DNA of 32,000 bases from Trichodesmium erythraeum IMS101 (GCF_000014265.1 NC_008312.1:2940001-2972000); one strand, 5' to 3'; numbered from the stretch's first letter, positions 1 to 17,879 are shown. The notes: generated by a model from the sequence alone, not told the origin. Numbers and translations are program-made.

Positions 1-1274
1 TTTTCAGTTTTTGATAATTCAGTTTTTCTAAGATTTCTTTGAGTCTCTAATTGCTCTACTGGTTTTTCTGCTTTTCCAATATCTTGATATTTTTTTATCT
101 CTTCATCTCTTGACTCATTTTGATAATTATCTAATTCTGTCACTGGTTTTTCCTCTTGTTTAACTGCATCTGCCATTACCTTTTCTATTGTTTCTGCACT
201 CTCTACTAATAATTGACTTTCGTCATCTTTATTATCAACTTTTCCTTTCAAAACTAAAAGAGAATTTTCTGTTAGTAATTCTTTAATTTCTTGATATACT
301 TTTGGAAAAACTACGGCATCTAGTTGCCCGGTCATATCTTCTACTTGAATAAATGCCATAGGGTCGCCTTTTTTTGTAACATGAGGTTTAATTCCAGCTA
401 ACATTACTACTAATTTTATTTTGGAATTAGATTTTTTTTCTTTCATTTGAGCGATAGAAATAGCATCTTGAATTTGATTTTGTTCTTGTGCATATTTAAG
501 GGGATGATCAGATACATAAAATCCTAGAATTTCTTTTTCATATTCCAATTTTTCTTTGGCTGGAAAATCTGAAACTGGGGAAGATTTAGGAACAGAATCA
601 AAAGCTGAATTTTTTGCTCCAGGGATATGATTATCAAATAAACTTAATTGTCCTATATTGCGGTCTTTATTTCGATCTTGTGCCCATTTCATTACACCTT
701 CTAAGTCTTTAATTAATTGGTGACGGTTTGCTTCAATTTTATCGAAGGCTCCACATTTTATTAAAGATTCTAAAGTACGACTATTAAGGGCATTAAGATT
801 AACGCGGTCACATAAATCTGCTAAAGACTTAAATTCTCCTCCTTCTTTTCTGGCTTTTAAAATTGCTTCTATTGCTCCTTCTCCTACATTTTTTACAGCG
901 GATAATCCTACTAAAATTTTATCTTTTATTTCTTTTGTGGCTACTTTTGGCAAAGGAGTAAAGTCTACTTCTGACTGATTAATATTTGGTGGTTCGACTT
1001 CGATATTAAATTTCTGACAATTAGCAAGATATTTTTGTACTTTATCTTGGTCGCCACTATTTGCGGTTAGTAAAGCTGCCATATATTCGAGTGAATAATT
1101 AGCTTTTAAATAAGCAGTTTGATAAGCTACATAAGCGTAAGCTGTGGAATGAGATTTATTAAAACAGTTGGAAGCAATTAACCCGTTTGCTAATACAAAA
1201 TTATGGTCTTTAGTTACACCAATGTCATAAACATTTTCTGTTTTGGCAAGTTTGCGAGAGACAATTTTTACCAC
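1..1274 (-). CDS. dnaE: DNA polymerase III alpha subunit, C-terminal half (split dnaE-c) with N-terminal split-intein C-fragment; 3' end runs off the window
   Basis: Absent from the ORF track because there is no stop inside the window. Reverse-strand translation starts at GTG 1274..1272 with AAGGAG 8 nt upstream. It reads VVKIVSRKLAKTENVYDIGVTKDHNFVLANGLIASN|CFNKSHSTAYAYVAYQTAYLKANYSLEYMAALLTANSGDQDKVQKYLANCQKFNIEVEPPNINQSEVDF. I hand-translated three segments (about 961-1274 and 3-62) and found them open in this frame; the last codons are PVEQLETQRNLRKTELSKTE. KSHSxAYA..AYQTAYLKA..EYMAALL is the conserved Pol III alpha segment that follows the cyanobacterial split-intein junction. Confidence 0.9.
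   Translation of the reverse strand, partial: MVKIVSRKLAKTENVYDIGVTKDHNFVLANGLIASNCFNKSHSTAYAYVAYQTAYLKANYSLEYMAALLTANSGDQDKVQKYLANCQKFNIEVEPPNINQSEVDFTPLPKVATKEIKDKILVGLSAVKNVGEGAIEAILKARKEGGEFKSLADLCDRVNLNALNSRTLESLIKCGAFDKIEANRHQLIKDLEGVMKWAQDRNKDRNIGQLSLFDNHIPGAKNSAFDSVPKSSPVSDFPAKEKLEYEKEILGFYVSDHPLKYAQEQNQIQDAISIAQMKEKKSNSKIKLVVMLAGIKPHVTKKGDPMAFIQVEDMTGQLDAVVFPKVYQEIKELLTENSLLVLKGKVDNKDDESQLLVESAETIEKVMADAVKQEEKPVTELDNYQNESRDEEIKKYQDIGKAEKPVEQLETQRNLRKTELSKTE
1167..1274 (-). other. Split DnaE intein C-fragment (IntC, 36 codons), followed by +1 Cys-Phe-Asn of the C-extein
   Basis: The 36 codons end in the ..HNFVLANGLIASN terminal Asn (codon 1169..1167). Cys follows at 1166..1164 (plus-strand aca), then Phe-Asn. 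This is the canonical IntC ...HNF..NG.IASN/CFN signature of cyanobacterial DnaE split inteins. Confidence 0.85.
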
Positions 1275-1307
1275 GAGAATAACTCCTTTGTTAGACAAAA
1301 ATAGAAT

Positions 1308-1983
1308 AGGTTTTAGGTTTTAGGTTTGAGGTTTTAGGTTTTAAGTTTTAGGTGTCAATTTTTTGAGGTTTTAGGTTTTAGGTTTTAGGTTTTAGGTTTT
1401 AAGTTTTAGGTGTCAATTTTTTGAGGTTTTAGGTTTTAGTTTTTAGGTTTTAAGTTTTAGGTTTTAAGTTTTAGGTTTTTAAGTTTTAGGTGTCAATTTT
1501 TTTTTGTGTTAATTTTCTGAGGTTTTAGGTGGTAGGTTTTAGACGTCAATTTTTTGAGGTTTTAGGTGGCAGGTTTTAGGTTTTAGGTTTTAAGTTTGAG
1601 GTGTCAATTTTTTGAGGTGTTAATTTTTTGAGGCGTCAATTTTTTGAGGTTTTAGGTGGTAGGTTTTAGACGTCAATTTTTTGAGGTTTTAGGTTGCAGG
1701 TTTTAGGTTTTAGGTTTTAAGTTTGAGGTGTTAATTTTTTGAGGTGTTAATTTTTTGAGGCGTCAATTTTTTGAGGTTTTAGGTGACAGGTTTTAGGTGT
1801 TAATTTTTTGAGGTTTTAGGTTGCAGGTTTTAGGTGTTAGGTGTCAATTTTTTGAGGTGTTAATTTTTTGAGGTGTTAATTTTTTGAGGTTTGAGGTTTT
1901 AGGTTTTAGGTTTGAGGTTTTAGGTGGTAGGTTTTAGGTTGCAGGTTTTAGGTTGCAGGTGTTAGGTGTTAAGTTTGAGGTTT
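1308..1983. repeat. Heptanucleotide microsatellite (GGTTTTA/AGGTTTT and variants) interspersed with repeated 17-mers (G/C/A)G(T/C)GT(C/T)AATTTTTTGAG
   Basis: Direct reading shows runs of aggtttt/aagtttt/gaggttt. They are punctuated about 15 times by ggtgtcaattttttgag, ggtgttaattttttgag, ggcgtcaattttttgag or gacgtcaattttttgag. The plus strand is G/T-rich and C is rare. The array starts 34 nt upstream of the dnaE-c start codon. Confidence 0.95.
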
Positions 1984-2307
1984 AAAATTAACAAATTCAT
2001 AACAGCCTACTACTAACTATCTTAGCCTTCGGTTTGGATACAAAAGCCTGTTAGATAAAATATTATAACATAAGGGCAAATTGTTATATAACGAGGAAAT
2101 TCCAAAGTTTACTTCTCTTTTTTTGACTTTTTTAGATAACCCTACCTCTTGGGAAAGCTTTTTCAATTATTGAAACTTTTTATGTTTATTTATCTACTTT
2201 TTATCTGGTCTATGCTTCTCAATATAGTGGTCTTTTTCTTTTTTTGAACTGTTAATTCAAGGAATGGTTTTTCATTTAATAAAGGTTATTTTATTCTATG
2301 GCGTCTA

Positions 2308-3981
2308 GCGATCGCTTGATCAATTTTTCTTTTCATGACCTCTACTGACTATTTACTTAACTATTGCGCTTGAGTTTTTATATTTTAGATAAAGTGGGTG
2401 GGGTAGCGATCGCTTGATCAATTTTTCTTTTCATGACCTCTACTGGCTATTAACTTAACTATTGCGTTTGAGTTTTTAGATTTTAGATAAAGTGGGTGGG
2501 GTAGCGATCGCTTGATCAATTTTTCTTTTCATGACCTCTACTGGCTATTAACTTAACTATTGCGTTTGAGTTTTTAGATTTTAGATAAAGTGGGTGGGGT
2601 AGCGATCGCTTGATTAATTTTTCTTTTCATGACTTCTACTGGCTATTAACTTAACTATTGCGTTTGAGTTTTTAGATTTTAGATAAAGTGGGTGAGATAG
2701 CGATCGCTTGATAAATTTTTCTTTTCATGACTTCTACTGGCTATTAACTTAACTATTGCGTTTGAGTTTTTAGATTTTAGATAAAGTGGGTGAGATAGCG
2801 ATCGCTTGATCAATTTTTCTTTTCATGACCTCTACTGACTATTTACTTAACTATTGCGCTTGAGTTTTTATATTTTAGATAAAGTGGGTGGGGTAGCGAT
2901 CGCTTGATCAATTTTTCTTTTCATGACCTCTACTGACTATTTACTTAACTATTGCGTTTGAGTTTTTAGATTTTAGATAAAGTAGGTGAGGTAGCGATCG
3001 CTTGATTAATTTTTCTTTTCATGACTTCTACTGGCTATTAACTTAACTATTGCGTTTGAGTTTTTAGATTTTAGATAAAGTGGGTGAGGTAGCGATCGCT
3101 TGATTAATTTTTCTTTTCATGACCTCTACTGACTATTTACTTAACTATTGCGTTTGAGTTTTTAGATTTTAGATAAAGTGGGTGAGGTAGCGATCGCTTG
3201 ATCAATTTTTCTTTTCATGACTTCTACTGGCTATTAACTTAACTATTGCGTTTGAGTTTTTAGATTTTAGATAAAGTGGGTGAGGTAGCGATCGCTTGAT
3301 CAATTTCTCTTTTCATGACCTCTACTGACTATTTACTTAACTATTGCGTTTGAGTTTTTAGATTTTAGATAAAGTGGGTGAGATAGCGATCGCTTGATTA
3401 ATTTTTCTTTTGATGACCTCTACTGACTATTTACTTAACTATTGCGTTTGAGTTTTTAGATTTTAGATAAAGTGGGTGAGGTAGCGATCGCTTGATTAAT
3501 TTTTCTTTTGATGACCTCTACTGACTATTTACTTAACTATTGCGTTTGAGTTTTTAGATTTTAGATAAAGTAGGTGAGATAGCGATCGCTTGATCAATTT
3601 TTCTTTTCATGACTTCTACTGGCTATTAACTTAACTATTGCGTTTGAGTTTTTAGATTTTAGATAAAGTAGGTGAGGTAGCGATCGCTTGATCAATTTTT
3701 CTTTTCATGACTTCTACTGGCTATTTACTTAACTATTGCGTTTGAGTTTTTAGATTTTAGATAAAGTAGGTGAGATAGCGATCGCTTGATCAATTTTTCT
3801 TTTCATGACTTCTACTGGCTATTAACTTAACTATTGCGTTTGAGTTTTTAGATTTTAGATAAAGTGGGTGAGGTAGCGATCGCTTGATCAATTTCTCTTT
3901 TCATGACCTCTACTGACTATTAACTTAACTATTGCGTTTGAGTTTTTAGATTTTAGATAAAGTGGGTGGGGTAGCGATCGC
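2308..3981. repeat. 98-bp tandem repeat, 17 units bounded by 18 HIP1 (GCGATCGC) sites
   Basis: GCGATCGC occurs at 2308, 2406, 2504, 2602 ... 3974, an exact 98-bp period (1666/98 = 17). The unit is GCGATCGC-TTGATCAA-TTTTTCTTTTCATGACCTCTACTGACTATTTACTTAACTATTGCGTTTGAGTTTTTAGATTTTAGATAAAGTGGGTGAGGTA. Units differ only at a handful of variant positions. 98 is not a multiple of 3, and the track lists no ORF of 60 aa or more here except 3962..4159, which only starts at the array's 3' edge. Confidence 0.97.
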
Positions 3982-4013
3982 TTCACTTGAAGAGAAAAAT
4001 ATGTTCAACTACC

Positions 4014-4132
4014 TAATTCCCAAACTCCCAAATTCCCAAACTTTCCCAGTTCCGAAATTTCCCACTCCCAAACTCCCAAACTCCCAAACTCCTAATTCCC
4101 AAATTTCCCAATTCCCGAGTTTCCAAACTTCC
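4014..4132. repeat. Octanucleotide array (N)TCCCAAA, about 15 units, C3-run rich on plus strand and G3-run rich on minus strand
   Basis: The sequence reads taattcccaaactcccaaattcccaaactttcccag...cccactcccaaactcccaaactcccaaactcctaattcccaaatttcccaattcccgag. It lies 55-170 nt upstream of the ATG at 4187. Confidence 0.9.
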
Positions 4133-4186: not shown

Positions 4187-7100
4187 ATGGCCGAGTTCTC
4201 TAAAGACGATAATTCATACTATCCCGGGGAGCCAGACCCTCTATTCCCAGAAACTAACTATCATCCTGGCACTGACCTAGACCCTGAAATTGCAGACCCC
4301 ATCATACAATGTGCCTGGGGTGAGGTTCGTGACCAATTGGCGGACTTTATCTTAGCCCCCGAATTAGAGGCCCATATGGAGATGGCTTTTGGTGAAACGG
4401 TGGACTCGGATATGGCTAAAAATGAGATTCAGGACATTTTGACTGGGGAAAATTTGCCTGATATTCAAGTGTTGCCTGCGGCTGATATGGATCCGGTGGT
4501 GGGTGGTTTTGATTCTTTGACTGGTACTATTTATTTGGCTGATTCTTTATGGCTTGATACTTGTGGGGCTGAAGATGGGGTTTTGGAGGATGTCCTGTTG
4601 GAGGAGTTGGGGCATTTTTTGGATTCCCAGTTGTCTGAGTCGGACTCCCCTGGAGATGAGGGTGAGTTATGGGCAGGTTTGGTGAAGGGAGAGGAGTTGA
4701 CGGAGTCGGAGGTTTTGCGGCTTCGGGCTCAGGATGATAGGGTTGAGATTTGGGTATGGGGTATTTTGGTTGAGGTTGAGGCTACTCAGGAGGTTTATTT
4801 TGAGAGGGTTGGTGATTTTCCGGTGGGAGACGAACCTAAGTCAGTAGCAGTAGAAGATTTTAATGGAGATGGCATTCCTGATCTGGCTGTGGCGAACTAC
4901 AGTTCAGACAACGTATCAGTGTTATCAGGAAAAGGTGACGGTACTTTTGGTTCACCTACTAATTTCCTGGTAGGAGATTCTCCTAGTTCAGTAGCAGTAG
5001 AAGATTTTAATGGAGATGGCATTCCTGATCTGGCTGTGGCGAACTACAGTTCAGACAACGTATCAGTGTTACCAGGAAAAGGTGACGGTAGTTTTGGTTC
5101 AACTACTAATTTTCCGGTGGGAAGCTTACCTAGGTCAGTAACAGTAGAAGATTTTAATGGAGATGGCATTTCTGATCTGGCTGTGGCAAACAGCTTTTCA
5201 GATAACGTATCAGTGTTATCAGGAAAAGGTGACGGTACTTTTGGTTCAACTACTAATTTTCGGGTGGGAAACTCACCTAAGTCAGTAACAGTAGAAGATT
5301 TTAATGGAGATGGCATTTCTGATCTGGCTGTGGCGAACACATATTCAGACAACGTATCAGTGTTATTAGGAAAAGGTGACGGTACTTTTGGTTCAACTAC
5401 TAATTTTCCGGTGGGAGACGATCCTTTATCAGTAGCAGTAGAAGATTTTAATGGAGATGGCATTCCTGATCTGGCTGTGGCGAACTACAGTTCATACAAC
5501 TTATTAGTCTTATTCGGAAAAGGTGACGGTAGTTTTGGTTTACCTACTAATTTTCAGGTGGGGGATGGGCCATACTCAGTAGCAGCAAGAGATTTTAATG
5601 CAGATGGCATTCCTGATCTAGCTGTGGCAAACTATTGGGATGAAAACGTATCAGTGTTATTCGGAAAGGGTGACGGTAGTTTTGGTTCCGCTATTAATTT
5701 TCAGGTGGGGGATGGGCCGTACTCAGTAGCAGTAGAAGATTTTAATGCAGATGGCATTCCTGATCTAGCTGTGGCCAACTATTGGGATGACAACGTATCC
5801 ATCCTCATCAACACCCCCATAAACATCACCATATCCCCTTTAAGCACTACCAGTCTAGAACCAGGAAAGAGCTATACTCTTGAGTGGACAGACAACTTTA
5901 GGGATGAAGTAAAGCTGGAACTATACAAAGACAATTTTTTACAAGCAACAATTTCTAGTTCTACCCCCAGCGATGGCAGTTTCTCTTGGACGGTGCCGAC
6001 ATCTTTAACCAGCGGTAGTAATTACAATATTAAGATGACTAAGGTCAACGATAGTAGCATTTACGACTACAGCAACAACTTCACCATCGAACCCAATAAA
6101 GAGGTAAACATCACCTTCCCTTCAAATTTTACCAGTCTTCAAACTGGGCAAAGCTACGATATCCAGTGGACAGACAACATAGATGAAAACGTTAAGCTAG
6201 AATTATATAAAGGAGGTTCTTTCAACAGTACCATCTCCAGTTCCACGGAAAGCGACGGCAGTTACTCTTGGGCAGTTCCCACATCCGTGACCACTGGCAG
6301 CGACTATCAAGTAAAAATTACTAGCATCAGCGACAGTAGTCTTTCCGACTTCAGTAACAGCAATTTTACTATTAAGCCAGAAGACTTCATCACAGTTAGT
6401 TCCCCCGACGGTGGCAATACCTTAGAACTTGGAAAAACCTATAGGATAAATTGGAGCGATAATATAGATGAAAATGTCAAGCTAGAATTGTACAAAGCAG
6501 GTTCTTTCTTCGGTACCATCTCCAGTTCCACCGCAAGCAACGGCAGTTACTCTTGGGCAGTTCCCACATCCCTAACCAGTGGCAGCGACTATCAAGTAAA
6601 AATTACTAGCGTCAGCGACAGTAGTATTTCTGACTTGAGTAACAGCAACTTCACTATTAAGCCAGAAGACTTCATCACAGTTAGTTCCCCCGACGGTGGC
6701 AATACCTTAGAACCTGGAAAAACCTATACGATAAATTGGAGCGATAATATAGATGAAAATGTCAAACTAGAATTGTACAAAGCAGGTTCTTTCTTCGGTA
6801 CCATCTCCAGTTCCACCGCAAGCAACGGCAGTTACTCTTGGGCAGTTCCCACATCCCTAAGCACTGGCAGCGACTATCAAGTAAAAATTACTAGCATCAG
6901 CGACAGTAGTATTTCTGACTTGAGTAACAGCAACTTCACTATTAAGCCAGAAGACTTCATCACAGTTAGTTCCCCCGACGGTGGCAATACCTTAGAACTT
7001 GGAAAAACCTATACGATAAATTGGAGCGATAATATAGATGAAAATGTCAAGCTAGAATTGTACAAAGCAGGTTCTTTCTTCGGTACCATCTCCAGTTCCA

Positions 7101-10100
7101 CCGCAAGCAACGGCAGCTACTCTTGGGCAGTTCCCACATCCCTAACCAGTGGCAGCGACTATCAAGTAAAAATTACTAGCGTCAGCGACAGTAGTATTTC
7201 TGACTTGAGTAACAGCAACTTCACTATTAAGCCAGAAGACTTCATCACAGTTAGTTCCCCCGACGGTGGCAATACCTTAGAACTTGGAAAAACCTATACG
7301 ATAAATTGGAGCGATAATATAGATGAAAATGTCAAGCTAGAATTGTACAAAGCAGGTTCTTTCTTCGGTACCATCTCCAGTTCCACCGCAAGCAACGGCA
7401 GCTACTCTTGGGCAGTTCCCACATCCGTGACCAGTGGCAGCGACTATCAAGTAAAAATTACCAGCATCAGCGACAGTAGTATTTCTGACTTGAGTAACAG
7501 CAACTTTACTATTAAGCCAGAAGACTTCATCACAGTTAGTTCCCCCGACGGTGGCAATACCTTAGAACCTGGAAAAACCTATACGATAAATTGGAGCGAT
7601 AATATAGATGAAAATGTCAAACTAGAATTGTACAAGGCAGGTTCTTTCTTCGGTAATATCTCCAGTTCCACCGCAAGCAACGGCAGCTACTCTTGGGCAG
7701 TTCCCACATCCCTAAGCACTGGTAACGACTATCAAGTAAAAATTACCAGCATCAGCGACAGTAGTCTTTCCGACTTCAGTAACAGCAATTTTACTATTAA
7801 GCCAGAAGACTTCATCACAGTTAGTTCCCCCGACGGTGGCAATACCTTAGAACCTGGAAAAACCTATACGATAAATTGGAGGGATAATATAGATGAAAAT
7901 GTCAAACTAGAGTTGTACAAAGCAGGTTCTTTCTTCGGTAATATCTCCAGTTCCACCGCAAGCAACGGCAGTTACTCTTGGGCAGTTCCCACATCCCTAA
8001 CCAGTGGCAGCGACTATCAAGTAAAAATTACCAGCATCAGCGACAGTAGTCTTTCCGACTTGAGTAACAGCAATTTTACTATTAAGCCAGAAGACTTCAT
8101 CACAGTTAGTTCCCCCGACGGAGGCAATACTTTAAAACGAGGAAAAAACTATAGGATAACTTGGAGGGATAATATAGATGAAAATGTCAAGGTAGAGTTG
8201 TACAAAGCAGGTTTTTTATTCGGCACCATCTCCAGTTCCACGGAAAGCGACGGCAGTTACTCTTGGGCAGTTCCCACATCCCTAAGCACTGGTAACGACT
8301 ATCAGGTAAAAGTTACCAGCATCAGCGACGGTAGTCTTTCCGACTTCAGTAACAGCAATTTTACTATTAAACCAGAAGACTTAGCTAAAATTTCCATCGG
8401 AGACACGAAAATTACTGAAGGCAATACAAATAAAGCGGCTAAATTCAAGGTCACCCTAGACAACCCCACGACGGAAACAGTTAAAGTCAACTACACCACA
8501 GCCAACCAAACCGCCAAAGTCAACCAAGACTACAAACTGACCAAAGGCACCCTCACCTTCCGACCTGGAGAAACGAACAAGACTATAACAGTTCCGATAT
8601 TGGGAGATAAGCGGGATGAAGCGGAGGAAAAATTTAATCTCAACCTCAGCCGCCCCCGAAATGCAAAACTTAAAGATGCCCAAGCCATCGGAACTATTGT
8701 TGATAACGACCAACCTCCGCAAATATCTATTGGGGATGCGAAGGTGACTGAGGGAAATAAGGGTAAGAAAAATATGGAGTTTGAAGTGAAGTTAAACGAC
8801 CCCAGCGGTAAAACGGTGAAGGTGAGTTATGGAACTGTTGAGGGCAGCGCGAAGTCTGGAAAAGATTATCAAAAAACAAGTGGGGTACTGACGTTCAAGC
8901 CTGGGCAGAGGAAAAAGATTTTGAATGTTCCCATATTGGGAGATACTCGCGATGAGAAGAATGAGAATTTTCAGGTCAAACTCAGCGGTGCGAAAAATGC
9001 TAAGTTGTCAGATAAAAATGCAGTGGGTGTTATTCGGGATAATGATGAAACGGTTCCGCAAATATCTATTGGGGATGCGAAGGTGACTGAGGGAAATAAG
9101 GGTAAGAAAAATATGGAGTTTGAGGTGGAGTTGAATAAGGGGAGTAGTAAAACAGTGAAGGTGAGTTATGGAACTGTTGACGGCAGCGCGAAGTCTGGAA
9201 AAGATTATCAAAAGACAAGTGGGGTACTGACGTTCAAGCCTGGGCAGAGGAAAAAGATTTTGAATGTTCCGATATTGGGAGATACTCGCGAGGAGAAGAA
9301 TGAGAATTTTCAGGTCAAACTCAGCGGTGCGAAAAATGCTAAGTTGTCAGATAAAAATGCAGTGGGTGTTATTCGGGATAATGATGAAACGGTTCCGCAA
9401 ATATCTATTGGGGATGCGAAAGTGACTGAGGGAAATAAGGGTAAGAAAAATATGGAGTTTGAGGTGGAGTTGAATAAGGGGAGTAGTAAAACAGTGAAGG
9501 TGAGTTATGGAACTGTTGAGGGCAGCGCGAAGTCTGGAAAAGATTATCAAAAAACAAGTGGGGTACTGACATTCAAGCCTGGGCAGAGGAAAAAGATTTT
9601 GAATGTTCCGATATTGGGAGATACTCGCGATGAGAAGAATGAGCAGTTTCAGGTCAAACTCAGCGGTGCGAAAAATGCTAAGTTGTCAGATAAAAATGCA
9701 GTGGGTGTTATTCGGGATAATGATGAAACGGTTCCGCAAATATCTATTGGGGATGCGAAGGTGACTGAGGGAAATAAGGGTAAGAAAAATATGGAGTTTG
9801 AGGTGGAGTTGAATAAGGGGAGTAGTAAAACAGTGAAGGTGAGTTATGGAACTGTTGACGGCAGCGCGAAGTCTGGAAAAGATTATCAAAAAACAAGTGG
9901 GGTACTGACATTCAAGCCTGGGCAGAGGAAAAAGATTTTGAATGTTCCGATATTGGGAGATACTCGCGATGAGAAGAATGAGAATTTTCAGGTCAAACTC
10001 AGCGGTGCGAAAAATGCTAAGTTGTCAGATAAAAATGCAGTGGGTGTTATTCGGGATAATGATGAAATAATTGGAAAAACTCCCCAAATATCTATCAAGG

Positions 10101-10771
10101 ATACAAAAATTACGGAAGGAAAGAAAGGTGAGAAAGATATGAAATTTGAAGTCAAGTTAGACAAAAGTAGTAGTCAAATAGTGAGAGTTAATTATGAGAC
10201 TGTTGACGGCAGCGCGAAAGCAGGAAAAGATTATGAGAAGAAAAAGGGAGTCTTAAAATTCCAACCGGGAGAGACGAAAAAGACTGTAAATATTTCTATT
10301 TTGGGAGATACTGTTGATGAAAAGAATGAGAATTTTCGAATCAAACTTAGCGGTGCGAAAAATGCTAATTTGTCAGATAAAAATGCAATAGGTATGATTC
10401 GAAATAACCAGGTGCCAGAGAGTTTCAAAGATGCTGTAGATTTAGGAATTCTTTCTTCAGAACAAACTGTAGTGGTTGATGATATTGGGTTTGCAACTGG
10501 ACCTGTAAATCGTAATACGGAAGATTATTTCTGTTTTAAGGTAGAAAAAGAAGGTTTAGTGAGTATTTTTGTGGATGGTTTTATTCAGGATCTAGGAATT
10601 AAATTGTATGGTGATGATGAGAGTTTACTTAACCAGTCAAACGAGAAAGGTAATACAACTAAAGAAAAGATTAATACTATTTTAGATCCTGGTGTTTATT
10701 ATTTAAAAGTTTTCCCATTGGGAGTGGCTGCAACTGAATATAAGTTAAGGGTTAATATTGTTGATTCGTAA
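4187..10771 (+). CDS. Giant (2194 aa) multi-repeat extracellular/adhesin-like protein: conserved N-terminal module, 7-blade FG-GAP/VCBS propeller, 9 Ser/Thr-rich Ig-like repeats, 6 Calx-beta domains, C-terminal PPC (pre-peptidase C-terminal) domain
   Basis: Single uninterrupted ORF.
- N-terminal module (4187-4810): contains LLEELGHFLDS...SPGDEGELWAGLV, a module I recall at the start of other large cyanobacterial Calx-beta/FG-GAP proteins.
- FG-GAP repeats: seven copies of VEDFNGDGIPDLAVAN...DNVSVL.GKGDG(T/S)FG...NF.VG..P.SVA.
- Ig-like repeats: nine 95-aa repeats with W.DN..E.VKLELYK......I.SST...GSYSWAVPTS...G.DYQVKITS (Kre9/KNH-like Ig pattern).
- Calx-beta units: six 113-aa ISIGDAKVTEG.....F.V.L......V.V.Y.T.DGSAK.G.DY....G.L.F.PG...K...V.ILGD...E..E.F.
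- C-terminus: DYFCFKV...G.VSIFV......LGIKLYGDD........LDPGVYYLKV....V..TEYKLRV, a PPC pattern.
No N-terminal signal peptide is evident (MAEFSKDDNSYYPGEPDP). Confidence 0.9.
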   Translation: MAEFSKDDNSYYPGEPDPLFPETNYHPGTDLDPEIADPIIQCAWGEVRDQLADFILAPELEAHMEMAFGETVDSDMAKNEIQDILTGENLPDIQVLPAADMDPVVGGFDSLTGTIYLADSLWLDTCGAEDGVLEDVLLEELGHFLDSQLSESDSPGDEGELWAGLVKGEELTESEVLRLRAQDDRVEIWVWGILVEVEATQEVYFERVGDFPVGDEPKSVAVEDFNGDGIPDLAVANYSSDNVSVLSGKGDGTFGSPTNFLVGDSPSSVAVEDFNGDGIPDLAVANYSSDNVSVLPGKGDGSFGSTTNFPVGSLPRSVTVEDFNGDGISDLAVANSFSDNVSVLSGKGDGTFGSTTNFRVGNSPKSVTVEDFNGDGISDLAVANTYSDNVSVLLGKGDGTFGSTTNFPVGDDPLSVAVEDFNGDGIPDLAVANYSSYNLLVLFGKGDGSFGLPTNFQVGDGPYSVAARDFNADGIPDLAVANYWDENVSVLFGKGDGSFGSAINFQVGDGPYSVAVEDFNADGIPDLAVANYWDDNVSILINTPINITISPLSTTSLEPGKSYTLEWTDNFRDEVKLELYKDNFLQATISSSTPSDGSFSWTVPTSLTSGSNYNIKMTKVNDSSIYDYSNNFTIEPNKEVNITFPSNFTSLQTGQSYDIQWTDNIDENVKLELYKGGSFNSTISSSTESDGSYSWAVPTSVTTGSDYQVKITSISDSSLSDFSNSNFTIKPEDFITVSSPDGGNTLELGKTYRINWSDNIDENVKLELYKAGSFFGTISSSTASNGSYSWAVPTSLTSGSDYQVKITSVSDSSISDLSNSNFTIKPEDFITVSSPDGGNTLEPGKTYTINWSDNIDENVKLELYKAGSFFGTISSSTASNGSYSWAVPTSLSTGSDYQVKITSISDSSISDLSNSNFTIKPEDFITVSSPDGGNTLELGKTYTINWSDNIDENVKLELYKAGSFFGTISSSTASNGSYSWAVPTSLTSGSDYQVKITSVSDSSISDLSNSNFTIKPEDFITVSSPDGGNTLELGKTYTINWSDNIDENVKLELYKAGSFFGTISSSTASNGSYSWAVPTSVTSGSDYQVKITSISDSSISDLSNSNFTIKPEDFITVSSPDGGNTLEPGKTYTINWSDNIDENVKLELYKAGSFFGNISSSTASNGSYSWAVPTSLSTGNDYQVKITSISDSSLSDFSNSNFTIKPEDFITVSSPDGGNTLEPGKTYTINWRDNIDENVKLELYKAGSFFGNISSSTASNGSYSWAVPTSLTSGSDYQVKITSISDSSLSDLSNSNFTIKPEDFITVSSPDGGNTLKRGKNYRITWRDNIDENVKVELYKAGFLFGTISSSTESDGSYSWAVPTSLSTGNDYQVKVTSISDGSLSDFSNSNFTIKPEDLAKISIGDTKITEGNTNKAAKFKVTLDNPTTETVKVNYTTANQTAKVNQDYKLTKGTLTFRPGETNKTITVPILGDKRDEAEEKFNLNLSRPRNAKLKDAQAIGTIVDNDQPPQISIGDAKVTEGNKGKKNMEFEVKLNDPSGKTVKVSYGTVEGSAKSGKDYQKTSGVLTFKPGQRKKILNVPILGDTRDEKNENFQVKLSGAKNAKLSDKNAVGVIRDNDETVPQISIGDAKVTEGNKGKKNMEFEVELNKGSSKTVKVSYGTVDGSAKSGKDYQKTSGVLTFKPGQRKKILNVPILGDTREEKNENFQVKLSGAKNAKLSDKNAVGVIRDNDETVPQISIGDAKVTEGNKGKKNMEFEVELNKGSSKTVKVSYGTVEGSAKSGKDYQKTSGVLTFKPGQRKKILNVPILGDTRDEKNEQFQVKLSGAKNAKLSDKNAVGVIRDNDETVPQISIGDAKVTEGNKGKKNMEFEVELNKGSSKTVKVSYGTVDGSAKSGKDYQKTSGVLTFKPGQRKKILNVPILGDTRDEKNENFQVKLSGAKNAKLSDKNAVGVIRDNDEIIGKTPQISIKDTKITEGKKGEKDMKFEVKLDKSSSQIVRVNYETVDGSAKAGKDYEKKKGVLKFQPGETKKTVNISILGDTVDEKNENFRIKLSGAKNANLSDKNAIGMIRNNQVPESFKDAVDLGILSSEQTVVVDDIGFATGPVNRNTEDYFCFKVEKEGLVSIFVDGFIQDLGIKLYGDDESLLNQSNEKGNTTKEKINTILDPGVYYLKVFPLGVAATEYKLRVNIVDS
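4811..5810 (+). repeat. Intragenic 147-bp (49-aa) tandem repeat x7 encoding FG-GAP/VCBS blades
   Basis: gtagaagattttaatggagatggc recurs at 4850, 4997, 5144, 5291 and 5438, with variants at 5585 and 5732. The period is exactly 147 bp and in frame. Confidence 0.9.
5819..8374 (+). repeat. Intragenic 285-bp (95-aa) tandem repeat: 2 diverged plus 7 near-identical units (Ser/Thr-rich Ig-like domain)
   Basis: gaagacttcatcacagttagttcccccgacgg recurs at 6380, 6665 ... with an exact 285-bp period through 8374. Neighbouring units differ by only a few nucleotides. Confidence 0.9.
8390..10405 (+). repeat. Intragenic 339-bp (113-aa) tandem repeat x6 encoding Calx-beta domains (4 central units near-identical)
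   Basis: caaatatctattggggatgcgaaggtgactgag occurs at 8720, 9059, 9398 and 9737 (exact 339-bp period). Diverged units flank this block at 8390 and 10083. Confidence 0.9.
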
Positions 10772-10894
10772 TCAAATTTTTCAGTCATTAATTATCAGTA
10801 AATATTCTAATTGGATATCTCCAAAATCAGAGTTAATATTGATGTTAATATTATCGAAAAATTTGTTTAAAGCTATATAATAATGACTTAAATT

Positions 10895-12805
10895 TGAGAA
10901 TATTTAATAACCACCCGAAAGAAATAAAAATATTTATTGGTTTTACTGAGCCGGCTGTTTCAAAAATTCAGATAAGGTCTTCAAGTTTTAGCCGAAAATA
11001 CAAAATGGAAATAGCTGAAGGAGAAAAATGATTAATTACAGCAAAAGGCGATAGAAAAAAAATTAAAATTCGAGTGACTCAGGCATTAGAATATCTCAAT
11101 AACTATCCGAAAGAAATAAAAATATTTATTGGTTTTACTGAGCCGGCTGTTTCAAAAATTCAGATAAGGTCTTCAAGTTTTAGCCGAAAATACAAAATGG
11201 AAATAGCTGAAGGAGAAAAATGATTAATTACAGCAAAAGGCGATAGAAAAAAAATTAAAATTCGAGTGACTCAGGCATTAGAATATCTCAATAACTATCC
11301 GAAAGAAATAAAAATATTTATTAGTGTTACTGAGCCGGCTGTTTCAAAAATTCAGATAAAGTCTTCAAGTTTTAGCCGAAAATACAAAATGGAAATAGCT
11401 GAAGGAGAAAAATGATTAATTACAGCAAAAGGCGATAGAAAAAAAATTAAAATTCGAGTGACTCAGGCATTAGAATATCTCAATAACTATCCGAAAGAAA
11501 TAAAAATATTTATTAGTGTTACTGAGCCGGCTGTTTCAAAAATTCAGATAAGGTCTTCAAGTTTTAGCCGAAAATACAAAATGGAAATAGCTGAAGGAGA
11601 AAAATGATTAATTACAGCAAAAGGCGATAGAAAAAAAATTAAAATTCGAGTGACTCAGGCATTAAAATATCTCAATAACTATCCGAAAGAAATAAAAATA
11701 TTTATTAGTGTTACTGAGCCGGCTGTTTCAAAAATTCAGATAAAGTCTTCAAGTTTTAGCCGAAAATACAAAATGGAAATAGCTGAAGGAGAAAAATGAT
11801 TAATTACAGCAAAAGGCGATAGAAAAAAAATTAAAATTCGAGTGACTCAGGCATTAGAATATCTCAATAACTATCCGAAAGAAATAAAAATATTTATTAG
11901 TGTTACTGAGCCGGCTGTTTCAAAAATTCAGATAAAGTCTTCAAGTTTTAGCCGAAAATACAAAATGGAAATAGCTGAAGGAGAAAAATGATTAATTACA
12001 GCAAAAGGCGATAGAAAAAAAATTAAAATTCGAGTGACTCAGGCATTAGAATATCTCAATAACTATCCGAAAGAAATAAAAATATTTATTAGTGTTACTG
12101 AGCCGGCTGTTTCAAAAATTCAGATAAAGTCTTCAAGTTTTAGCCGAAAATACAAAATGGAAATAGCTGAAGGAGAAAAATGATTAATTACAGCAAAAGG
12201 CGATAGAAAAAAAATTAAAATTCGAGTGACTCAGGCATTAAAATATCTCAATAACTATCCGAAAAAAATAAAAATATTTATTAGTGTTACTGAGCCGGCT
12301 GTTTCAAAAATTCAGATAAAGTCTTCAAGTTTTAGCCGAAAATACAAAATGGAAATAGCTGAAGGAGAAAAATGATTAATTACAGCAAAAGGCGATAGAA
12401 AAAAAATTAAAATTCGAGTGACTCAGGCATTAAAATATCTCAATAACTATCCGAAAGAAATAAAAATATTTATTGGTGTTACTGAGCCGGCTGTTTCAAA
12501 AATTCAGATAAAGTCTTCAAGTTTTAGCCGAAAATACAAAATGGAAATAGCTGAAGGAGAAAAATGATTAATTACAGCAAAAGGCGATAGAAAAAAAATT
12601 AAAATTCGAGTGACTCAGGCATTAGAATATCTCAATAACTATCCGAAAGAAATAAAAATATTTATTGGTTTTACTGAGCCGGCTGTTTCAAAAATTCAGA
12701 TAAAGTCTTCAAGTTTTAGCCGAAAATACAAAATGGAAATAGCTGAAGGAGAAAAATGATTAATTACAGCAAAAGGCGATAGAAAAAAAATTAAAATCCG
12801 AGTCG
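10895..12805. repeat. 192-bp tandem repeat, about 10 units, starting about 125 nt after the giant gene's stop codon
   Basis: ccgaaagaaataaaaatattt occurs at 10915, 11107, 11299, 11491, 11683 ... (exact 192-bp period). Units are near-identical with a few variant positions (ggtttt/agtgtt/ggtgtt; aggtct/aagtct; tagaat/taaaat). The track has no ORF of 60 aa or more here. Confidence 0.97.
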
Positions 12806-12887: not shown

Positions 12888-13380
12888 TTTACTAATATCT
12901 ACGCCATAAATGCGTGCTTTTATATTTTTTTTGCTCCTATTAATAATGATATTTTATATATTATTAGTATTTTTATTTTATCTATCATTTTTTATCAAAT
13001 TTTTCAATAATTTTTTGATTAAAAACTAACAACAAAAAACAGTAAATTAATTTTTTTGTGTGTAGCGATCGCTATAATATAGCACCATATAAATACTAAT
13101 ATATACGCCATAAATATGTGATTTTATATTTTTTTGCTCCTATAAATAATTTAGTTTATATATATAAAATTTATTTTTTTTGATGTTATTTTTTAGTAAA
13201 TTAGCCAATAAATTTTTGAGTAAAAACTAACAGAAATAAACAGATAATTATTTTTTTCCTGTGGAGCGATCGCTATTAATAGTATTATATCAGTGTTTCT
13301 ACTTACTCCTTAAATGTGTGATGCTGCATTTGTTTTTGCTGCTATAAATTTTGATATTGATATTATATATATAACTATAG
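12888..13380. repeat. Degenerate ~201-204-bp tandem repeat, about 2.5 copies, extremely AT-rich, each full copy ending in a HIP1 site
   Basis: The following segments align: tactaatatctacgccataaatgcgtgcttttatatttttt..gctcctattaataat (12890), tactaatatatacgccataaatatgtgattttatattttt..gctcctataaataat (13094) and tacttactccttaaatgtgtgatgctgcatttgttttt..gctgctataaatttt (13301). HIP1 sites lie at 13065 and 13266. Confidence 0.8.
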
Positions 13381-13428
13381 TCTAACTGACTTGCAGTTTA
13401 GTGCAAATCTCTATTTGTTAGATAAAGA

Positions 13429-13472
13429 GGAGTTGGTGAAGGCTAAACCTTCACCAACTCCCCTCCTATTTT
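13429..13472 (+). terminator. Strong hairpin (14-bp perfect stem, 5-nt loop) followed by a T-rich tract; candidate plus-strand intrinsic terminator or structured RNA element
   Basis: GGAGTTGGTGAAGG (13429-13442), loop ctaaa, then CCTTCACCAACTCC (13448-13461), followed by cctcctatttta. No annotated gene lies upstream on the plus strand other than the repeat arrays. Confidence 0.5.
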
Positions 13473-14634
13473 AGGTTTATTATTGATAAAAAAAATACTT
13501 TAAATACTCTTGAAAATATGACAAAAAAGGGTTAAAAATCAAACAAAAAAAACAATAAAAATGAAATATTGGATAATTATTGAGGCTAAAAAAAGCAGAA
13601 ATTAATTATCGCAATATAGTTTAAATATTTAAAAAAAATTATATTTTATATCAGTCTATTAAACTGTAAAAATATCAGAATAATCAGCTTTTTTTTATCA
13701 CAATTAAATCTACAAAATTGCCGAAAATACATACAAAATTTTTTAGGATTAAAACAATTTATTTTACCTATATTCTGATTTTTTTAGTCAATATTCTGAT
13801 AAGAAAATGCTTTTATTTCAATCATAAGTAGTATTAACTTTAGATATAAACTAGTGAAAAAATATCAATATATTAATAATAAGTGTAGTTTAGAAAAAAA
13901 GAACATTATCTATATACTAAAACAATTAAGTTATCAATATCCAAGTAATATAACAGAACAACAAGGAGTAATTCGTCATATTTTAAGATTATTGAAAAAA
14001 TTTAACTAATTTTAGTAATAGATAGGAAATTACATAGTATCCATCTATCATGTTGGTTAAAAAATTATCCTCAAAAATATCTATACTTTCCATTTCTACA
14101 AAAAAACGAAATTAAGGGTGCTAGTAAATATTGTAAACTCGAGAAATTAAAAGTAAAATTTGGCTAAAAAAATTATTATTAAATCAAAAAAAATAAAAAA
14201 ATCAAGCAAGTCTTTCTATGCAATTTGTTGATATATAAAAAGCGCAAAATTAACCAGAAAAATATATCAAAACCTAGTAAATTATTAGTAATTTATTTTC
14301 GCTAGATAAAATTAATAAAGTATATAGTCAAAAAATAGAAATCAAGGATATGTTTGAAAAAATGTAATAATTGAAATTACAATTTTGAATAAGCAAAAGC
14401 AAACAAAAAAAATGAAATAATTTTATTGTAGTTTTATTCAATAATAGGTAGAGAATTTAGTACATTACATTCTCATAAGCTACCCTATTATCGAAAAGGA
14501 ATTAAAGCTATCTCAAAGATTAATACTCTGTAGAATCGTTTTCTTGTTTTTTTCTTGAATTATCAACTCTTTTTTATAATCTTTTTAAGAGCATTTAGAG
14601 TATTTTTTTTGAATAAATAATCAACTAAAATAGA

Positions 14635-14671
14635 GGGGAGTTTTTGAAAGCGAAGGGTTCACCAACTCCCC
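14635..14671 (+). repeat. Diverged second copy of the 13429 hairpin element (shared right arm TTCACCAACTCCCC)
   Basis: GGGGAGTT-tttgaaagcgaagggttcacc-AACTCCCC. The right arm gttcaccaactcccc closely matches cttcaccaactcccc at 13449-13463, and the left arm is partly mutated. Confidence 0.4.
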
Positions 14672-14959
14672 CTTATTAAAAATAAGCTTTCCATTGGACT
14701 TGAATTACTATTCAGCTTAACCTGTAAATTCCTTGAGATATTTATTTTCCAGCTAGCTTGTCACCCCGTGATCATTTTTACTTAATGTATGGGTATGAAA
14801 TGATTGTTATACTTTTTAGTTTAAGTCTTTACAAGCCAACAAGTCGAAAATAATCATTAAATTAAAAAAAACTACTAAAAAGTCGCTTTTCTAGGGCAAG
14901 GCTTCAAACCAAGTTTTTTGGTAATATATTATTGTTGATAAGCTAAAACTTAAGCAAAT

Positions 14960-15835
14960 ATGGCTCTAACAAAAACACAACTAATTGGTTTAAAAGCAAA
15001 TCATTTTCGGCATCCCTTAGATCTAGAGGCAACAAATGCTTTGAAGCAACTTCCTGGTATAGACCTCTTAGTTAGACAGTTGTTAAGTCCATTAGGTGAG
15101 CAATTTTTCTATATGGAAAATATTGCTTCCAGTGTTCTCGTCAGTGAAGCACAACTGCCAAATTTACACAAAACACTATTAGACGCTTGTCAAGCACTTG
15201 ACATAGAACCACCCCAATTATATATTCGTCAAAATCCTGTACCTAATGCTTATACATTTGCTATGCGAGGGAAGCAACCTTTTATTGTTGTTCATACATC
15301 TCTAATAGAGTTGCTCAACTTAGAGGAGATCCAAGCAGTATTAGGTCATGAGCTAGGACATCTTAAATGTGAGCATGGAGTATATCTTACCCTAGGTAAC
15401 TTAATTGTACTTGCTGCTGGACAAATTTCGACATGGGGTGGCATAATAGCCCAAAGCTTACAAAGCAAAATACTAGAATGGCTAAGATGTGCCGAATTTA
15501 GTTGTGATCGCGCAGCCCTACTGGCCACACAAAATTCTCAAGTAGTTGTATCAGCTTTGATGAAGTTAGCTGGTGGTTCTCCAACAATATCACCTCAACT
15601 TAATGTAGATGCTTTTTTAGCTCAGGCAAGAGCTTATAATGAACTTAGTAATACAGAAGTTGGTGAAGTATTAAAGGAAGTCCAAACGGCTCAACTAACT
15701 CATCCTCTACCTGTATTGAGGGCCAAAGAAATTGATATGTGGGCAAGTAGCAAAAAATATCAGGATATATTGCAAAATTTAGCAAAAGATGTGTATAATA
15801 ATCAAAGGATTAAGGGCGGGTGGCGAAATTGGTAG
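14960..15835 (+). CDS. M48-family zinc metallopeptidase (HtpX/Ste24-like)
   Basis: 291-aa ORF with HExxH at VLGHELGHLKCEH. It shows the context typical of cyanobacterial M48 peptidases (FAMRGKQPFIVVHTSLIELL..EEIQAVLGHELGH...EFSCDRAALL). The last 22 nt overlap the tRNA gene. Confidence 0.85.
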   Translation: MALTKTQLIGLKANHFRHPLDLEATNALKQLPGIDLLVRQLLSPLGEQFFYMENIASSVLVSEAQLPNLHKTLLDACQALDIEPPQLYIRQNPVPNAYTFAMRGKQPFIVVHTSLIELLNLEEIQAVLGHELGHLKCEHGVYLTLGNLIVLAAGQISTWGGIIAQSLQSKILEWLRCAEFSCDRAALLATQNSQVVVSALMKLAGGSPTISPQLNVDAFLAQARAYNELSNTEVGEVLKEVQTAQLTHPLPVLRAKEIDMWASSKKYQDILQNLAKDVYNNQRIKGGWRNW

Positions 15836-15895
15836 ACGCACCACACTCAAAATGTGGCGACTTCGGTCGTGAGAGTTCGAGTCTCTCTCCGCCCA
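15814..15895 (+). tRNA. tRNA-Leu (anticodon CAA), 82 nt, no encoded CCA
   Basis: Hand-folded cloverleaf:
- acceptor GGGCGGG/TCCGCCC (one G-U pair)
- D arm GCG-AAATTGGTAGA-CGC
- anticodon stem CCACA/TGTGG with loop CT-CAA-AA
- long variable arm CGAC-TTCG-GTCG
- T arm GAGAG-TTCGAGT-CTCTC
- discriminator A. Confidence 0.92.
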
Positions 15896-16693: not shown

Positions 16694-16987
16694 CTAAGGA
16701 AGATGTTTTTTATTTATATTTAGAATTGGTAGTTGTGGACGAGACGAATTAGGAGGCAAATAATATTCTGGAACAGCACTAGATTGCTCAATATGAGAAC
16801 CCTTGAGCAGATAGAGGCGTAATATAATGGCAACTCCTACAGTTCCCATTCCTAGAAAAAATAAAGACCAACTTGATTCGACACCTCCAATGACGGCATC
16901 AACTGCTCCCATTGTCACTACAAAGCTGACTACTGGATCTTTTCGATAAGCTGTTTTAAGAATTTTTAGCCATAAAGCATTGATCAT
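16694..16987 (-). CDS. Small hypothetical membrane protein (97 aa, two predicted TM helices)
   Basis: ORF with two hydrophobic stretches, VVSFVVTMGAVDAVIGGV and SLFFLGMGTVGVAIILRLYLL, and a Pro-rich tail. No family recognised. Confidence 0.5.
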   Translation of the reverse strand: MINALWLKILKTAYRKDPVVSFVVTMGAVDAVIGGVESSWSLFFLGMGTVGVAIILRLYLLKGSHIEQSSAVPEYYLPPNSSRPQLPILNINKKHLP

Positions 16988-17063: not shown

Positions 17064-17879
17064 TTATCCTACAAGACATTTGCGGAAAATTCCCAATTCA
17101 TCAATATTAAGGGCTTTCTGCTTCATCGTACTTGCCCTCCGAGATTTACTCTCTTCAGGTCTTACAGTCGCGACCCAGACTGACACTGCCTGTCCGGTAG
17201 CCAAAATGTTTATACTTGCGTTTAGATAACTATCATGGTGACTAGCGCTTTCAGGACAGTCCCATTGTCTAATATTTAAAGATAATTTTTCTACTATATG
17301 AATACAATTAGAGTAACGTTTAGAACTAGGAAAATATCTGTCAATTTTTATTAATGTACGACTATACCATTGAGCTTTGTATTCTAATTGCTTCACTAAT
17401 TCTCCCCAATTAGCATCACTTATTGCTATCGTACTGGGTATACAACCTAGTAGTAATTGCCTGCTCCATCTAATATATAATTGTTCTGCATACTTAGCTA
17501 AATAGACTTGACCATCTTTACATTTGAAGGCTGACTTTGTAAACGTAGCACTACCAACATTTCTTTTTTTCTTGGAATTAGGATATTTAGTATGTCCACT
17601 AAAAAGGTTATTAGAAGCCGTTTTTAAATATCTTAAGCTTTGCTGTAATACTACACTGCTTACTTCAGGGAGAAAACTTAAATATTCCGGTTTTTTCCAA
17701 GAAGTCAATATAGCTGAAGTTTGTTTATAGCTCACTCTTTCTGGGTGTTCATGCCAAGCTTGAGTTCTAGTTGCTAAAGCTTTGTTGTAGATGAGGTGTA
17801 TACAACCCAAAATCCTCAGCAACAGAATTTCCTGCTCTGGAGTTGGATAAAATCTAAATTTGTATGCTTTTTGGACCAT
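17064..17879 (-). pseudogene. tnpB: Decayed TnpB (IS200/IS605-family OrfB, RNA-guided nuclease family) with a large internal deletion
   Basis: - N-terminus MVQKAYKFRFYPTPEQEILLLR..GC...IYNKAL is the classic TnpB start.
- C-terminal ISDANWGELVKQLEYKAQWYSRTLIKIDRYFPSSKR.SNC.H matches the TnpB RuvC-II/zinc-finger region.
- Only 271 aa against about 400 expected. The segment between ..PSTIAI and SDANWGE (RuvC-I and central region) is missing.
- Zinc-finger cysteines are replaced (YSNCIH, CPESA) and HDRDxNA reads HDSYLNA. Confidence 0.8.

Follow-up and report, generated by a model that had tools for sequence, protein, structure and literature searches.

We identified a tandem array of 192-bp units in a 4.2-kb gene-free intergenic stretch that follows a giant repeat-protein gene and is bounded downstream by a gene for an M48 peptidase (Table 1; the window is the whole stretch of DNA analysed, 32,000 nucleotides long). 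The giant gene, with its adhesin-like product, itself contains three coding tandem arrays (147-, 285- and 339-bp), and the M48 peptidase has 92-93% protein identity to Okeania, Dapis and Trichodesmium MAGs. Between 1.3 and 12.8 kb the window is approximately 80% tandem repeat, three other non-coding arrays included, and HIP1 sites (GCGATCGC), a cyanobacterial mark, occur in it as well.

Table 1. Positions of the array, its internal features and its surroundings, counted from the first nucleotide of the window.
Feature	Position	Strand	Remarks
Heptamer array, TAGGTTT x92	1307-1983		
98-bp unit x17	2306-3983		one HIP1 site per unit
8/16-bp repeats	just upstream of the giant gene		
Giant gene, 2194-aa FG-GAP / Kre9_KNH / Calx-beta / PPC-tail protein, adhesin-like	4187..10771	+	stop 124 bp before the array
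Imperfect inverted repeat, 25 nt	10847-10871 / 12990-13014		flanks the array
Best promoter-like match of the region, TCGAAA-N16-TATAAT	10854..10881	+	10 of 12; unique DNA; ends 15 bp before the array
Tandem array, 10 units x 192 bp	10886..12803	.	TRF and unit alignment
Palindrome AGCCGGCT, one per unit	10949..10956	.	every 192 bp
8-codon mini-ORF, MINYSKRR and stop, behind AAGGAG	11028..11054	+	recurs every +192; ATGA overlap
Promoter-like TTAAAA-N18-TAGAAT/TAAAAT, per unit	11063..11092	+	9 of 12; across each unit junction; consensus match only
49-codon GTG ORF, one per unit	11074..11223	+	no SD-like sequence upstream; neutral substitutions
In-frame TGA of the 64-codon frame	11221..11223	+	first at 11029, then at 192-bp intervals; shared by every unit, those of the metagenomes too
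Homogenised interior units U3-U8	11279..12430	.	all with derived AGTGTT
Three degenerate ~200-bp repeats	12890-13335		after the array
Weak terminator-like hairpin and T-run	12900..12916	+	~100 bp after the array; first on the + strand
Much stronger terminator-like site	13429-13461		
M48 peptidase gene, downstream neighbour	14960..15835	+	2.15 kb after the array

The period of exactly 192 bp and the approximately ten units given in a preliminary description of this DNA were recovered by TRF, which placed the array at 10897-12803 with a period of 192, 9.9 copies, 98% matches and 0% indels. Unit alignment resolved it into ten head-to-tail units of exactly 192 bp each, 98% identical, extending from about 10886/10897 to 12797/12803. 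On the left, weak homology of U1 to an interior unit junction reaches ~10886 (xTGACT...GAGAATAT...AATAAC...CCG), and on the right U10 stops matching after CGAGT at ~12797. In the register used here, with units starting at 10895+192k, interior units differ from one another at 0-2 positions, while U1 is divergent over its first ~20-30 bp and U10 over its last ~12 bp. The edges are crisp: local alignments of the flanks to the unit scored no better than shuffles (z about 0), leaving no degenerate further units, and no sub-period was found inside the unit. A CRISPR array was rejected, as whole 192-bp units repeat without unique spacers. Nor is the array an assembly artefact, since the independent metagenome contigs L084, L085 and L086 each run through at least three consecutive units. 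The unit gave nothing below E 0.25 in the rest of the 32-kb window (blastn word 7, tblastx) and no match among plasmid and phage sequences by blastn in distant mode. Two 28-35-mers taken from different parts of it had no exact match in genome, metagenome and viral contigs, collections in which the source genome is apparently masked.

The feature that first drew attention to the array is a frame almost free of stop codons. As had been described, one plus-strand frame, that containing CCG AAA GAA, has a single TGA per unit, and the other five have 6, 7, 7, 4 and 3 stops, so that the contrast (1 vs 3-7) is real. The accompanying claim, that such a frame is unexpected for DNA this AT-rich, did not survive randomisation. 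When the unit was shuffled 20,000 times with its dinucleotides preserved, and all six frames were read around the circle, a frame with one stop or fewer turned up in 28.8% of the shuffles and a frame free of stops in 5.2%. Stop codons are few on the plus strand because 45% of its bases are A and no more than 25% are T, and the prior for a period that is a multiple of three is one third. An A-rich, T-poor strand yields both the 64-codon period and the single-stop frame as by-products; as a frame with one stop or fewer arises in 29% of shuffles, the property that made the array look special is to be expected.

The protein searches proposed in the preliminary description returned the array's own ORFs and no homologue of the unit. 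The 63 codons between two TGAs, compared with 5.8 billion proteins, matched only ORFs called on the array itself in metagenome assemblies, and an index-free HMMER search of 1.84 billion representative proteins added one further array ORF (P0005) and a 1400-aa BACON/LRR protein (P0006), with no true homologue. The latter match (phmmer E 1e-7) was rejected: it sums six near-identical target repeats of 3-8 bits each, and its best single stretch reached 8.3 bits with an i-Evalue of 3.6e5 in a local re-run. The lead it seemed to offer, to a decayed beta-sandwich domain, is therefore a summation artefact, and Pfam gave no BACON match. Searched against Pfam with either X or W at the stop, the unit translation belonged to no family; three units joined end to end gave a PqqF_C_3 match of 28.0 bits, where the cutoff is 27.9 bits, and this reflects the same artefact as P0006. 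The unit translation had no similarity to the giant protein or to the rest of the window. A single-sequence AlphaFold (AF2) model of the unit was mostly coil with a pLDDT of 56, which is weak negative evidence. Codon-usage log-odds did not discriminate: measured against true in-frame windows the frame ranked at the 31st percentile, but scores as high were reached by 15% of windows read out of frame and by one frame of the opposite strand, and one training gene was misframed. Recoding of the TGA, including as selenocysteine, was rejected: no hairpin follows the TGA, and the standard code gives full-length reading frames for the window's Pfam-supported genes.

Substitutions among the units point in the same direction. 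We collected 21 units from the window and five related contigs or strains, excluding the divergent array ends, and counted 23 substitutions. In the single-stop frame they split 11:8:4 over codon positions 1:2:3, with three synonymous, 19 missense and one nonsense. The neutral expectation of 23% synonymous changes is compatible with these counts (P=0.18), and purifying selection was rejected at omega 0.5 (P=0.009), 0.3 (P=2e-4) and 0.2 (P=4e-6), bearing in mind that the test has only 23 substitutions, some from short-read contigs that are possibly chimeric between units. The earlier observation that every visible difference between units changes the amino acid holds for all five differences within the window.

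The distribution of variants along the array suggests how it has evolved. The edge units U1, U2 and U10 carry GGTTTT, U9 carries GGTGTT and U3-U8 uniformly carry AGTGTT; GGTTTT is probably ancestral, because it is also present in the most diverged strain, L087. An older variant at the edges and a uniform interior are what unequal crossing-over is expected to leave behind. Compared with the window, three close strains have 99.5-99.7% identity in the unique coding tail, 100% in the 125-bp spacer and 97.4-97.9% in the first array unit, and in L087 the corresponding values are 98.6%, 96.0% and 94.4%, with 94.2% for the right flank. The units thus change at least as fast as the adjoining non-coding DNA.

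The number of units seen differs among the assemblies in which the locus was found, one array-bearing contig of which comes from a Tara Oceans marine metagenome. L084-L086 have at least three units and L001 has an N-gap within the array, all of them short-read assemblies, in which arrays collapse. In L087 and L088, likewise short-read assemblies, a single unit joins the left and right flanks, and this may represent either a one-copy allele or assembly collapse, being compatible with copy-number polymorphism. The 192-bp unit was found in none of the M48 loci of related species. In L089, a more distant relative whose gene tail has 78.5% nucleotide identity, the orthologous position holds different repeats, three HIP1 units of ~97 bp as well as AAACCTA heptamers, and no 192-bp unit. 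On this comparison the position after the giant gene is one that attracts tandem repeats, and the 192-bp repeat is young and lineage-specific.

The array is probably a lineage-specific non-coding minisatellite (VNTR-type) of a cyanobacterium of the Trichodesmium/Okeania clade, possibly T. erythraeum. Its sequence has no detectable constraint as protein or as folded RNA. We hypothesize that it originated by duplication of one 192-bp stretch of 3' intergenic DNA and that unequal crossing-over, gene conversion or replication slippage between units would account for its growth and uniformity; the derived variant would have spread through the interior, with the edge units retaining the ancestral one. 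The array may be passively transcribed, either from a start at the TATAAT-type site at 10854-10881 or by read-through from the giant gene, which is possible because no terminator-like site was found between gene and array. Bacterial intergenic minisatellites, the VNTR loci used in MLVA typing, share with it a constant period, high identity between units and the lack of coding capacity, as well as a homogenised interior with older edges; their variable copy number may have a counterpart here. Among bacterial intergenic VNTRs, a 192-bp unit and a total of 1.9 kb rank near the top of the size range. Unlike these, the array is surrounded by an imperfect inverted repeat (Table 1). STRR heptamers and HIP1-containing repeats, which are reportedly non-coding and typical of filamentous cyanobacteria, are similar in being non-coding tandem repeats and have examples in the same window (1307-1983 and 2306-3983), whereas the 192-bp unit has neither heptamers nor a HIP1 site nor a sub-period. 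In Porphyromonas gingivalis, a minisatellite is reported inside a MITE (PMC4596501).

Dismissing a repeat of this clade as just satellite has been wrong before, because a 7-unit array in Trichodesmium erythraeum IMS101 gives rise to the cell's most abundant RNA. That array (genome positions 103000-110200) consists of units of 736-973 bp with >96% identity, has a mapped TSS in every unit and a ~260-nt transcript detected by Northern blot, and accounts for 44.7% of primary reads (Pfreundt et al. 2014, PMC4143802). The present array belongs to the same clade and is likewise intergenic, with near-identical head-to-tail units (98% here), no similarity to other database sequences, an ordinary gene adjoining it and a genome that is ~40% non-coding. 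On this precedent it could be a functional ncRNA array, the most serious alternative to a minisatellite, although we consider it unlikely. In one version each unit would be an sRNA cassette, with TTAAAA-N18-TAGAAT as promoter and a TSS ~7 nt beyond it, and would give RNAs that are ~190 nt long or form a ladder; in the other, a single repeat RNA of ~2 kb would start from TATAAT at 10876-10881 and end near 12916, and would be A-rich and unstructured; it might, for instance, act as a sponge that binds up an RNA-binding protein.

Several features are consistent with such transcription. The TAGAAT/TAAAAT box that had been described does occur once per unit, and both -10 variants keep the form TAnnnT. 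The better match just upstream of the array (10 of 12) has its TATAAT kept in all strains seen and, if active, would yield one long repeat RNA. The first plus-strand terminator-like site comes directly after the array, and the plus strand is purine-rich, as is the sense strand of the neighbouring gene. Most non-coding DNA of T. erythraeum is also reported to be transcribed (PMC4649490); a 2025 T. erythraeum transcriptome paper leaves repeats and ncRNAs unmentioned. However, no sequence feature points specifically to an abundant repeat RNA, and promoter-like matches are not enriched in the region, with 35 found against 26.2 +/- 4.6 in shuffles. No terminator was found within the unit, Rfam gave nothing on the array at the gathering threshold or at E<=1, and the unit folds no more stably than shuffles (z = +0.74 on the plus strand and +1.41 on the minus strand). 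Against functional RNA there is also the rate at which the units evolve, at least that of adjacent non-coding DNA, and the 38-bp stretch without substitutions is approximately what our own calculation gives for 22 random sites on a 192-bp circle. The precedent differs, moreover, in having fewer and far longer units (7 of 736-973 bp against 10 of 192 bp), in having its TSS and transcript demonstrated where here there are consensus promoter-like boxes only, and in units that each include a duplicate of the adjacent gene's 3' part; the 192-bp unit contains nothing from the genes beside it.

A bolder form of this hypothesis, which we hold to be quite doubtful, is that the array might be a second, shorter-unit 'repeat RNA factory' of the Trichodesmium type. 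Driven by a TAGAAT promoter in each unit or by one TATAAT promoter (giving a 1.9-kb ten-fold repeat RNA), it would produce abundant A-rich unstructured RNA that might titrate an RNA-binding protein or otherwise act in trans, and strain-variable copy number would then set the dose.

That the array instead acts as DNA, whether as an array of AGCCGGCT operators or as curved DNA with phased A-tracts influencing the nucleoid or the expression of a neighbour, seems to us distinctly improbable. Each unit has one AGCCGGCT palindrome, as had been described, with GCCGGC absent from the rest of the 32-kb window, and AA dinucleotides have a modest 10.67-bp periodicity, both as such an element might predict; yet the p value of 0.017 applies to that one frequency and is uncorrected for the number of frequencies, and the periodicity is weak. 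The palindrome cannot form a hairpin, because it has no loop, and in one L086 unit it is disrupted (GAGACGGCT). No regulator, partition or replication gene was found near the array, no sequence constraint was detected and, to our knowledge, known iterons and operators are all far shorter than the 192-bp unit.

Translation of short ORFs from the ten units is very improbable. Both ORFs of the preliminary description exist as described, the 49-codon GTG ORF once per unit and the mini-ORF encoding MINYSKRR with its ATGA overlap every 192 bp, and there is something to be said for each, in that AAGGAG precedes the ATG by 4 nt in 10/10 window units and gene callers predicted the 49-codon ORF in metagenome contigs (P0001, P0003). 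AAGGAG, however, has 11 further occurrences elsewhere in the window. In unit 1 of L084/L085 the mini-ORF has a Y->C change and has lost its stop (TAG->TAT), and in L087 its SD-like box is AAGAAG. The 49-codon ORF has neither an SD-like sequence nor a homologue and accumulates neutral substitutions, nonsense included; the commonest 49-aa ORF of the window, in an exact look-up, had no record in the assembly index. From these features of its sequence we judge that it is not a gene.

Scarcely credible, finally, is a decayed or recoded repeat-protein gene, that is, a former beta-rich domain repeat, from either a lost extension of the giant adhesin gene or a TGA=Trp donor, that was then amplified or became a pseudogene: the exact 64-codon period with its single-stop frame, the alternating K/I/V patterns of the translation, the position directly after a repeat-protein gene and the translation of the array through TGA as W (Trp) by some pipelines (P0002, P0005) might suggest it, but the giant gene is read in another frame (4187 mod 3 = 2, 11221 mod 3 = 1), no unit in any strain lacks the TGA, and homologue, Pfam family (even with W), confident fold and similarity to the giant protein were all lacking in the searches above. 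The K/I alternation itself arises because of AAAATT-type A/T tracts, and as the units are near-identical in DNA, the amplification is recent and the stop was already in place. Thus the doubt first voiced about a coding role is upheld by the lack of homologue, Pfam family and fold, by the neutral substitutions and by the poor conservation of the mini-ORF and its SD-like box; the decayed gene and the micro-peptide put forward with it fall away, and a non-coding array is what remains. Two of the three findings that the preliminary description had named as refuting it were obtained, namely no homologue of the unit and a single-stop frame expected on randomisation.

A hidden gene or a recoded repeat protein at this locus would have been remarkable if true, and both coding readings are rejected. 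Non-coding tandem arrays are already known in Trichodesmium-clade genomes, and as a non-coding minisatellite the array is fairly ordinary among them. Its practical consequences are felt in genome resources, where short-read MAGs collapse or break at the array (L001, L002, L084-L088) and some pipelines miscall ORFs on it, even reading TGA as Trp. More generally, the array further documents the unusually large share of Trichodesmium-clade genomes that is non-coding and rich in repeats, and the way this share turns over, and if it is transcribed per unit, it would provide a second case for studying massive repeat-derived RNA in this clade.

The 192-bp non-coding tandem array is bracketed or followed by two further sets of repeats (see the table). 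Directly 3' of it lie three degenerate direct repeats of unrelated sequence, the second and third copies of which are 90% and 64% identical to the first, and which look like an older array in decay. Each of these repeats begins with a weak hairpin and a T-run, and a HIP1 site, a cyanobacterial repeat site, closes each of the first two (13065 and 13266), being followed by TATAAT at the end of the first. A 25-nt inverted repeat lies on either side of the 192-bp array, and positions 10770-10782 hold a motif related to it, ATCAAATTTTTCA. This inverted repeat could be a chance occurrence in AT-rich DNA, or could mark both termini of a small carrier element, in which case the array would be a minisatellite inside a MITE.

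Further downstream, imperfect inverted repeats enclose a segment that looks like a dispersed MITE-like element. Both of its ends contain a strong GC-rich hairpin (13429-13461), and its interior matches another site on a Trichodesmium MAG contig (L009, 13581-14302) at 67% over 731 bp.

Features surrounding the 192-bp array in the window
Feature	Position	Strand	Remarks
Split DNA polymerase III alpha subunit (DnaE), C-terminal half	~1-1270	-	
Heptamer TAGGTTT array	1307-1983		~92 copies
Large non-coding array	2306-3983		98 bp x 17.1 copies, 96% identical
AA(C/T)TCCCA repeats	4007-4132		8/16-bp
Giant gene, FG-GAP / Kre9_KNH / Calx-beta protein	4187-10771	+	2194 aa, PPC-like tail
Inverted repeat	10847-10871 and 12990-13014		25-nt, 84% complementary
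Three degenerate direct repeats	12890-13335		~200-204 bp
Segment between imperfect inverted repeats	13422-14676		~1.25 kb; repeats ~130 bp, 77-81% complementary
tRNA-Leu(CAA)	15814-15895	+	
271-aa ORF	17064-17879	-	HTH_OrfB_IS605 and Cas12f1-like TNB domains

Repeats also characterize the giant gene upstream of the 192-bp array, which is built of three internal arrays that are almost perfect at the DNA level (147 bp x 6.6, 285 bp x 7.7, and 339 bp x 4.9) and has a GC content of 42-46%, compared to about 31-34% in its surroundings. In the MAG contig L001 the encoded protein is 825 aa, reflecting collapse by short-read assemblies, and the 98-bp array, which carries one HIP1 site (GCGATCGC) per unit and ends ~200 bp ahead of the giant-gene start codon, is likewise collapsed. 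The AA(C/T)TCCCA repeats occupy the last ~180 bp before this ATG and may serve as a variable-length leader or promoter spacer. The TAGGTTT array is STRR-like cyanobacterial heptamer DNA, with GGTGTCAATTTTTTGA blocks scattered among its copies and higher-order periods of 37-127 bp; the complement, AAACCTA, is found downstream of the orthologous giant gene in a more distant relative (L089, 870-930).

Among the other genes, the DnaE half starts with a split-intein C-fragment (VKIVSRKLAKTENVYDIGVTKDHNFVLANGLIASN|CFNKS), and its ORF extends beyond the window end. The 271-aa ORF is probably a truncated IS605-family TnpB, as it is short for TnpB, and immediately downstream is a 97-aa ORF (16694-16987) that belongs to no known family. 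The tRNA and the M48 peptidase ORF, which ends at 15835, overlap by the final 22 nt of the latter. The true stop or the called 3' end of this ORF may need checking.

Metagenome gene calls in ENA (P0002 on the related contig L088 and P0005 on a similar contig) read the 192-bp array through its TGA as Trp. These calls have placed spurious "proteins" of 95-121 aa in protein databases, and the array can seed false protein clusters.
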